Assembly: GCF_003019035.1 (NCBI RefSeq)
Contig: NZ_CP027447.1
Origin: Escherichia coli
Lineage (GTDB): Bacteria > Pseudomonadota > Gammaproteobacteria > Enterobacterales > Enterobacteriaceae
Reading direction: 5' to 3' (one strand)
DNA length: 64,000 nucleotides
Numbering within the stretch: the first letter of the stretch is position 1; every line of letters begins with the position of its first letter. The notes below the pieces were generated by a model. The model did no database searches, was not told the origin of the DNA, and saw nothing but the letters and a program-made list of their open reading frames with translations. A program made the translations under genes and the position numbers. This document shows, one piece after another, positions 24,257 to 24,319 of this stretch.

Positions 24257-24319
24257 TTTCTACTCCTGGACCGCAGGTCTGAAAAGACCTGCGAGTATAT
24301 CAGAGCTGAATATGTCGCG

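Follow-up and report, generated by a model that had tools for sequence, protein, structure and literature searches.

A palindrome in the sad-glsB spacer of Escherichia coli overlaps the start site of an internal promoter with a conserved extended -10

The window analyzed here is a stretch of 64,000 nt from the Escherichia coli contig NZ_CP027447.1, and the element in question is a short palindrome at 24272-24293, within the spacer between the genes sad and glsB. It is well supported that this palindrome straddles the start of glsBp, a conserved internal σ70 promoter of the extended -10 type, which drives glsB-yneG. All three genes are encoded on the minus strand. The upstream cistron sad (yneI, succinate-semialdehyde dehydrogenase; 24320..25708) was assigned by the open reading frame (ORF) list, the Pfam domain Aldedh (E = 8e-141) and the RefSeq annotation, and ends with the stop codon TGA at 24322-24320. 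A spacer of 63 nt (24257-24319) separates it from glsB (yneH, glutaminase 2; 23330..24256), for which the ORF list, the Pfam domain Glutaminase (E = 2e-117) and the RefSeq annotation agree. The GTG start of glsB at 24256-24254 is conserved (GTGGC, 92-98%), and its Shine-Dalgarno sequence AGGAG (24263..24267) is found 4 nt past the 3' arm of the hairpin; AAGGAG shows little or no variation between genera. The unit glsB-yneG ends with yneG (22971..23330; ORF list; Pfam DUF4186, E = 4e-52), the start of which shares one base with the stop of glsB.

Coordinates of K-12 (NC_000913.3) were obtained by adding 1,588,995 to the window coordinate. According to RegulonDB, as quoted in PMC6131387, sad and glsB-yneG are separate operons. 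The SMRT-Cappable-seq data of the same publication contain a sad-only unit starting at 1614845 (K-12) and, in addition, a read-through unit b1525|b1524|b1523 (sad-glsB-yneG) starting at 1614727. The initial annotation, made from the sequence, had placed the hairpin at the boundary of two units; this agrees with RegulonDB, and read-through across the boundary also exists.

On the plus strand, the palindrome reads CGCAGGTC-TGAAAA-GACCTGCG, and as RNA of the transcribed minus strand CGCAGGUC UUUUCA GACCUGCG. An extra U-A pair extends the RNA stem to 9 bp, seven of them G-C, and leaves a 4-nt UUUC loop. The 30-nt hairpin fold reached -16.3 kcal/mol, compared to -4.7 ± 2.0 kcal/mol for dinucleotide shuffles (z = -5.8; 0/200). 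The perfect 8-bp hairpin reported for this spacer was confirmed by sequence and fold, and also by the conservation described below. The further claim that it is situated on the transcribed strand without a U-tract was upheld by the 3' flank and by the terminator scan: a U-tract is absent on both strands (3' flank GUCCAGGAG on the minus and AGUAUAUC on the plus strand), and the scan did not call the hairpin. Perfect 8-bp hairpins are not rare in the window, with 21 nested counts versus 7.1 ± 2.2 in shuffles; for perfect 9-bp hairpins the numbers are 9 versus 1.5 ± 1.3. A chance origin of the hairpin, taken by itself, is just moderately unlikely, and it is because of its conservation that chance can be dismissed.

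No match at the hairpin was obtained in an Rfam scan of 22500-26500 at E ≤ 10; a match to HIV-1 SL4 (18.7 bits) elsewhere in this region was discarded as spurious. A second copy of the palindrome was found neither near sad, ptrR or yneG nor elsewhere in the 64-kb window. The 30-mer, consisting of the hairpin and 4 nt on either side, occurs at a median of one place per E. coli genome. Since it is single-copy, the hairpin is not a repeat of the repetitive extragenic palindromic (REP) type, and the single copy together with the missing Rfam match rules out a REP sequence, a bacterial interspersed mosaic element (BIME) or another dispersed repeat.

A promoter scan of the minus strand found CTGACG-18 nt-TG-a-TATACT. 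The extended -10 element TGATATACT (TGnTATACT; 24302..24294; 9/12 matches plus TG) ends at 24294 and directly adjoins the 5' arm of the hairpin, and the -35-like hexamer CTGACG (24318..24323), which precedes the -10 by 18 nt, overlaps the stop codon of sad. Among 49 unique Enterobacteriaceae sequences, the T, A, T, A and final T of the -10 are invariant, the C is found in 96% and the TG in 98%; the sole exception at the -10 is the K. oxytoca group, which has TATAAT without TG. In several genera, the -35-like hexamer has been moved out of the -35 position by a deletion. It is therefore dispensable, and the promoter relies on its extended -10.

Two published data sets place a promoter here. Genomic SELEX (systematic evolution of ligands by exponential enrichment) with RpoD holoenzyme assigned to yneHG a constitutive σ70 promoter located between sad and yneH (PMC3946193); the hexamers which those authors guessed differ from the ones found here. 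Supplementary Data 2 of the SMRT-Cappable-seq study (PMC6131387) lists the operon b1524|b1523 (glsB-yneG) on the reverse strand with a start at 1613280, labeled ‘same’ as RegulonDB. By coordinate conversion, this start, known from one data set, is position 24285 of the window, i.e., the first base of the loop, 9 nt past the -10. The method enriches triphosphate 5' ends by capping; neighboring starts up to 5 bp apart were clustered and poly-C was removed from the 5' ends (PMC6131387), so that the start is good to a few nucleotides; any plausible glsBp start is still inside the palindrome. The layout as such is established by the extended -10 and its conservation, together with the start and the read-through operon known from the literature. 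The overlap of the palindrome with an internal promoter had been missed by the initial annotation. As to transcript ends near the hairpin, the published primary 5' end is at 24285, and 3' ends were not found among the listed Term-seq and TRS entries. As glsBp starts in the loop, the transcript end at the hairpin is a primary 5' end produced by initiation and not by processing.

The three parts of the palindrome have different positions relative to glsBp. The 5' arm CGCAGGTC (24286..24293) is the GC-rich 8-nt discriminator between the -10 and the start, the loop TTTTCA (24280..24285) contains the start itself, and the 3' arm GACCTGCG (24272..24279) is located at about +7 to +14 in the 5' untranslated region. 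With the start in the loop, RNA begun at glsBp cannot form the stem, and read-through RNA alone carries both arms; this anatomy of glsBp implies that glsB is covered by two mRNA forms. The leader of glsB from glsBp has 29 nt, of which the 3' arm is the first GC-rich stretch, and the first 86 nt of this transcript have no unusual structure (z = +0.5). In read-through RNA, the 9-bp stem formed in every context folded. A σS promoter was also considered, due to the TATACT hexamer and a C at -13 in many genera. This idea was unsupported, as E. coli has A at -13, and yneH levels are increased in EDL933 when rpoS is mutated (PMC2907692), hence the σS-like look of TATACT does not indicate RpoS dependence.

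Conservation within the species was determined in complete E. coli genomes. An 801-bp piece (23900-24700) was matched in 5417/5426 genomes, and the exact 30-mer is present as a single copy in 5407 of the 5417 genomes bearing the locus. The surrounding 103 nt had some difference in 1119 of 5419 records and were identical in 4300; they are the same in K-12 and O157:H7. When six species-level genomes of Escherichia were compared, 0/22 sites in the hairpin and 13/35 sites in the other spacer were variable (Fisher p = 0.0008). Judged by these substitutions, the hairpin is under constraint. As a separate observation, the 801-bp piece is matched at ≥ 99% in 2/5419 E. coli records (strain SCU-301 at 100%) and at about 98% in the remainder; the flanking coding sequence is thus an uncommon allele around a highly conserved spacer.

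For comparison across the family, 80 GlsB-encoding loci were used, with one genome per species from about 25 genera of Enterobacteriaceae, and columns and pairs were counted in the 49 unique sequences. Whatever the upstream gene, one layout precedes glsB: CTCTG-n-TATACT, the inverted repeat, GGGCAAGGAG, 5-7 nt and GTGGC. The upstream gene is a chemoreceptor gene (mcp) in most genera, and sad where mcp was lost (Escherichia, Salmonella, Kluyvera, Raoultella). The nine pairs of the hairpin are formed in 79% of cells, compared to 21-40% with the partner slid by 1-3 columns. Both sides were changed in 20 cells, a number which 0/500 shuffles reached, and the covariation score exceeded all 500 shuffles and all slid controls. 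Three independent compensatory changes were found: a T-A pair in Escherichia versus C-G in most genera, with the C.A intermediate in Salmonella and Citrobacter; A-T to T-A in Silvania confinis; and G-C to C-G in Phytobacter. One-nucleotide changes of loop length are tolerated, and the arm spacing is constant in 41/49 sequences. The 5' arm is the more conserved one (61-98% per column). Shuffling the 3' letters among the sequences lowered pairing from 79% to just 74%, which means that most of the pairing is column conservation. A metagenome scan with the arm-neutral pattern CTCTGNTATACT-N24-32-GCAAGGAG gave 35 matches, one of which (L096, Leclercia type) is a glsB promoter.

Some further features of these loci were noted. 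In most Enterobacteriaceae, mcp (~540 aa) is located between sad and glsB and ends with CCTGACG, at a distance of 20 nt from the -10. Escherichia has lost mcp, and the stop codon of sad takes exactly the position of the mcp TGA (24318-24323). Salmonella, Kluyvera and Raoultella lost mcp via different junctions and have a remnant CCTGACG or ACGACG after their own sad stop. Most genera have a homopolymer run in the loop and start region: E. coli has TTTT, Kosakonia and Enterobacter have GTTTTT or ATTTTT, and Kluyvera and Pluralibacter have GAAAA(T/A). Such runs, when located at +1 to +5, are the substrate of reiterative (slippage) initiation, which is sensitive to nucleoside triphosphate pools. 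Three bins, labeled Caldithrix sp. (L001), Bacillota bacterium (L003) and Chryseobacterium sp. (L034), have sad-glsB regions which either share 99% identity with E. coli or are of the Citrobacter type; judged by this similarity, they are probably contaminant contigs or mislabeled bins.

Beyond the 9-bp stem, a longer helix over the ribosome-binding site of glsB was predicted in read-through RNA. In the minimum free energy (MFE) structure of E. coli, GCUCU (24302..24306, minus strand), which includes the T of the extended -10 TG and is nearly invariant by column conservation (CTCTG, 82-98%), pairs with the Shine-Dalgarno GGAGU. The stretch after the sad stop pairs with GUG and the first codons, so that the UGA of sad is at the base. 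The partners GCUCU and GGAGU are almost invariant, and covariation is missing except in Phytobacter. A very strong long helix was found in Kluyvera (CGUAGCC...GGCUACG), in Raoultella/Klebsiella (CCGUCGCC...GGCGACGG; 110-nt MFE down to -58 kcal/mol) and in Phytobacter (CCUGAUUUUU/AAGGAUCGGG). The 28 nt preceding the -10 were paired with the Shine-Dalgarno-start region, and the energy of this duplex was tested against shuffles. It beat the shuffles in Kluyvera, Raoultella/Klebsiella, Salmonella, ESNIH1 and Phytobacter alone (z = -2 to -5.4). In E. coli, it was not beyond chance (-16.0 versus -12.8 kcal/mol; z = -1.0; 30/200 shuffles as good), and over 74 sequences the median z was -0.3.

Predicted accessibility of the Shine-Dalgarno sequence in E. 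coli was 0.72-0.86 for the glsBp transcript versus ~0.2 for read-through RNA, and over 78 sequences it was 0.57 for the primary versus 0.37 for the read-through RNA. The latter value equals that of controls in which the upstream sequence had been shuffled (0.38; p = 0.44). For E. coli, 0.18 was obtained versus 0.47, and shuffled-upstream controls were as low in 4/30 cases. The strength of the apical hairpin was not correlated with that of the lower stem (rho = -0.09). An extended stem over the ribosome-binding site was rejected as a feature of the whole family, given the results of RNAalifold, the median duplex z and the shuffled-upstream accessibility. Masking would thus be lineage-specific according to the folding models, and is unproven for E. 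coli. The significance of the long helix shows that selection acts on the structure of read-through RNA at the junction, at least for Kluyvera, Raoultella/Klebsiella, Salmonella and Phytobacter. The loci in question, at ~2430-2520 in each, are L042-L046, L049, L053, L056 and L071 (Kluyvera), L057, L060, L061 and L065 (Raoultella/Klebsiella), L011 and L022 (Salmonella), and L036 and L050 (Phytobacter); in these, the modeled long helix looks like an evolved mask of the ribosome-binding site in read-through mRNA.

At a probability of roughly 0.4, we read the hairpin as an RNA stem-loop specific to the read-through form, which acts as an intercistronic barrier to decay or processing and in some genera also seeds the helix closing the ribosome-binding site. 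RNA started at glsBp has the 3' arm alone in an unstructured leader. Read-through RNA from the sad promoter has both arms, and its 9-bp stem-loop is flanked by the stop of sad on one side and the ribosome-binding site of glsB on the other. We infer that pairing is selected at the RNA level in this read-through form. The stem-loop could block 3'-to-5' exonucleases from the sad or mcp message, and/or, once the adjacent AU-rich UGAUAUACU is cleaved, it could cap the glsB part. In some lineages, it may nucleate the longer helix which would mask the ribosome-binding site of glsB.

Several observations weigh against this reading. There is no direct evidence of any RNA-level function of the hairpin. 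Moreover, 3' or processed ends at the hairpin are absent among the listed Term-seq (PMC7815308) and TRS entries, in which sad is poorly expressed. In the K. oxytoca group, Raoultella, Lelliottia and C. amalonaticus, a weak stem or none is left, and RNAalifold applied to the 74-sequence alignment gave 0 pairs and no consensus structure. A strand signature is absent, with 20 G.U-type cells in the sense orientation versus 32 A.C-type cells (wobble on the other strand), and the mean stabilities of sense and antisense stems are equal. The 5' arm directly follows the -10 in all genera having it, a position that a purely RNA-level element would not require. Pseudocitrobacter retains a 7-bp stem despite an intrinsic terminator ~20 nt upstream of the promoter. 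Finally, the loop is also invariant within Escherichia, which fits a constraint on the promoter or the DNA. An extension of the RNA-level reading, in which the repeat split by the promoter forms a conserved insulator with a freely translated, open glsBp form and a read-through form closed by the stem-loop and, in several genera, by the longer helix, is quite unlikely.

The initial annotation had offered a processing or stabilizing structure and a protein-binding palindrome as alternatives, and both are possible. It is unlikely that the pairing has no function of its own, the 5' arm being kept as a GC-rich discriminator which adjusts the stability of the open complex and the choice of the start site, the 3' arm as a part of the leader adjoining the ribosome-binding site, and their complementarity being mostly ancestral. 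This account fits the clearly better conservation of the 5' arm and its persistence where the 3' arm decayed, the loss of the stem in several genera which kept the promoter, the small effect of shuffling and the missing RNAalifold consensus. A start 9 nt past the -10 combined with an 8-nt GC-rich discriminator also recalls the rrnB P1 class, i.e., kinetically tuned promoters. This account is at odds with the compensatory changes, which restored pairing in three separate lineages, with the covariation score and the cells changed on both sides, which exceed 500 shuffles and the slid controls, and with the stem of E. coli, which is derived and perfect where relatives have a C.A mismatch. The same compensatory evolution, together with the small changes of spacer length, fits base pairing better than the binding of a protein, and we regard it as unlikely that the palindrome is a DNA operator, at which a putative dimeric repressor on the 22-bp repeat (~-8 to +14 of glsBp) would block initiation or escape and give glsB-yneG a control independent of the PtrR-regulated sad promoter. 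The repeat does adjoin the -10 and is centered near +3, which is a classic position for a repressor. It keeps the same register to the -10 in every genus, the arm spacing is mostly constant, the arms mirror each other in conservation (positions 1, 3 and 5 high, position 2 low in both), and an operator would also accommodate the missing RNA strand signature, the loop invariant within Escherichia and the stem kept behind a terminator in Pseudocitrobacter. A chromatin immunoprecipitation sequencing (ChIP-seq) study mentions a sub-threshold YneJ signal upstream of glsB (PMC9283627). However, a matching motif was not found, the PtrR box at 25790-25804 is unrelated, no second copy exists in the flanks of the locus or the window, and YneG is without a convincing DNA-binding fold. 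A putative repressor which uses the palindrome as operator is the other novel possibility.

Two further accounts remain RNA-based. In one, the hairpin of E. coli would be the tip of a long imperfect helix which a ribosome terminating at the sad stop opens (translational coupling), with RNA started at glsBp being constitutively open. The MFE structure of E. coli has this shape, with the sad UGA at the base and the GCUCU-GGAGU pairing. The predicted accessibilities of the two mRNA forms differ in the expected direction, and strong, sequence-divergent equivalents exist in Kluyvera, Raoultella/Klebsiella, Salmonella, ESNIH1 and Phytobacter. We nevertheless consider this account very doubtful for E. 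coli, where complementarity of the lower stem is at chance level and some shuffled controls are as low in accessibility; likewise, neither the median duplex z nor the alignment-wide structure supports it. In the other, the hairpin would be an intrinsic terminator or attenuator ending sad transcripts. A GC-rich stem past a stop codon and the existence of a sad-only transcript class are in line with this. On the other hand, the U-tract is missing on either strand, the terminator scan and Rfam were negative, full-length sad-glsB-yneG reads exist, a Term-seq 3' end is not among the listed entries, and a termination site at 16132xx-16133xx of K-12 is not among the entries of SMRT-Cappable-seq Data 1 (PMC6131387). 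The terminator reading has hardly any probability left; it was rejected and is close to refuted.

In its anatomy, glsBp resembles other extended -10 promoters internal to operons (TGnTATAAT): it has TG-n-TATACT, a weak or dispensable -35 and a primary 5' end downstream, it overlaps the end of the upstream cistron, and holoenzyme binding within the spacer was found in vitro (PMC3946193). It differs in that the start is 9 nt past the -10 and that the 8-nt GC-rich discriminator is one half of an inverted repeat, the other half of which is transcribed. In the literature searched, no description of the glsB palindrome was found, nor anything relevant on a link of glsB to small RNAs or Hfq. Stem-loops which stabilize or process mRNA between cistrons are represented by the malE-malF REP hairpins, Rhodobacter puf and papBA. 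Like these, the sad-glsB hairpin is stable, is without a U-tract and lies between cistrons of a read-through mRNA. Unlike them, it is single-copy, has no mapped ends, is split by a promoter and is present in one of two mRNA forms. Coupling helices masking a ribosome-binding site are known from rpmI-rplT in the infC operon and from MS2 coat-replicase. The predicted sad-glsB helix shares with them the upstream stop at the base and the Shine-Dalgarno and start in the 3' strand, and a clear counterpart is seen in Kluyvera, Raoultella, Salmonella and Phytobacter; it differs in that statistical support is missing in E. coli and family-wide, and in that the internal promoter would bypass the helix. 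With the classic repressor operators at +1, the palindrome has in common the 22-bp repeat, the 8-bp arms, the center near +3 and the fixed register to the -10. A cognate protein, a known motif and a second site are missing, and compensatory evolution and small changes of spacer length distinguish it further. An internal promoter overlapping an intercistronic stem-loop belongs to known classes and is ordinary in kind.

The consequence for the locus is that glsB-yneG, which encodes one of the two glutaminases of E. coli, is served by a promoter of its own, which is of the extended -10 type, deeply conserved and distinct from the PtrR-controlled promoter of sad; in recent papers, sad-glsB-yneG is described as a single operon. 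The palindrome is one stretch of DNA under two overlapping constraints, as promoter discriminator and as stem arm. It would be a compact test case for the influence of an internal promoter on the structure of the mRNA forms over one gene, and perhaps also on their stability or translation. If the insulator existed, a promoter inside a hairpin would uncouple glutaminase output from upstream transcription of sad or mcp. Even if the pairing is functionless or modulatory, an intergenic hairpin without a U-tract beside a -10-like box needs a check for a start site before it is read as an RNA element.

Upstream of sad, the divergent gene ptrR (yneJ; 25809-26690) is encoded on the plus strand. The region between both genes contains the exact published PtrR (YneJ) box TTCTCGATTCGTGAA at 25790-25804, which is its sole match in the window. 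Other perfect hairpins of 8-10 bp in the window are located at 19636-19659, 31220-31243, 23085-23105, 46208-46228, 53844-53865 and 58060-58079. The total of hairpins in the window is about three times the expectation from shuffles, and the hairpin at 23085-23105 is situated within yneG.
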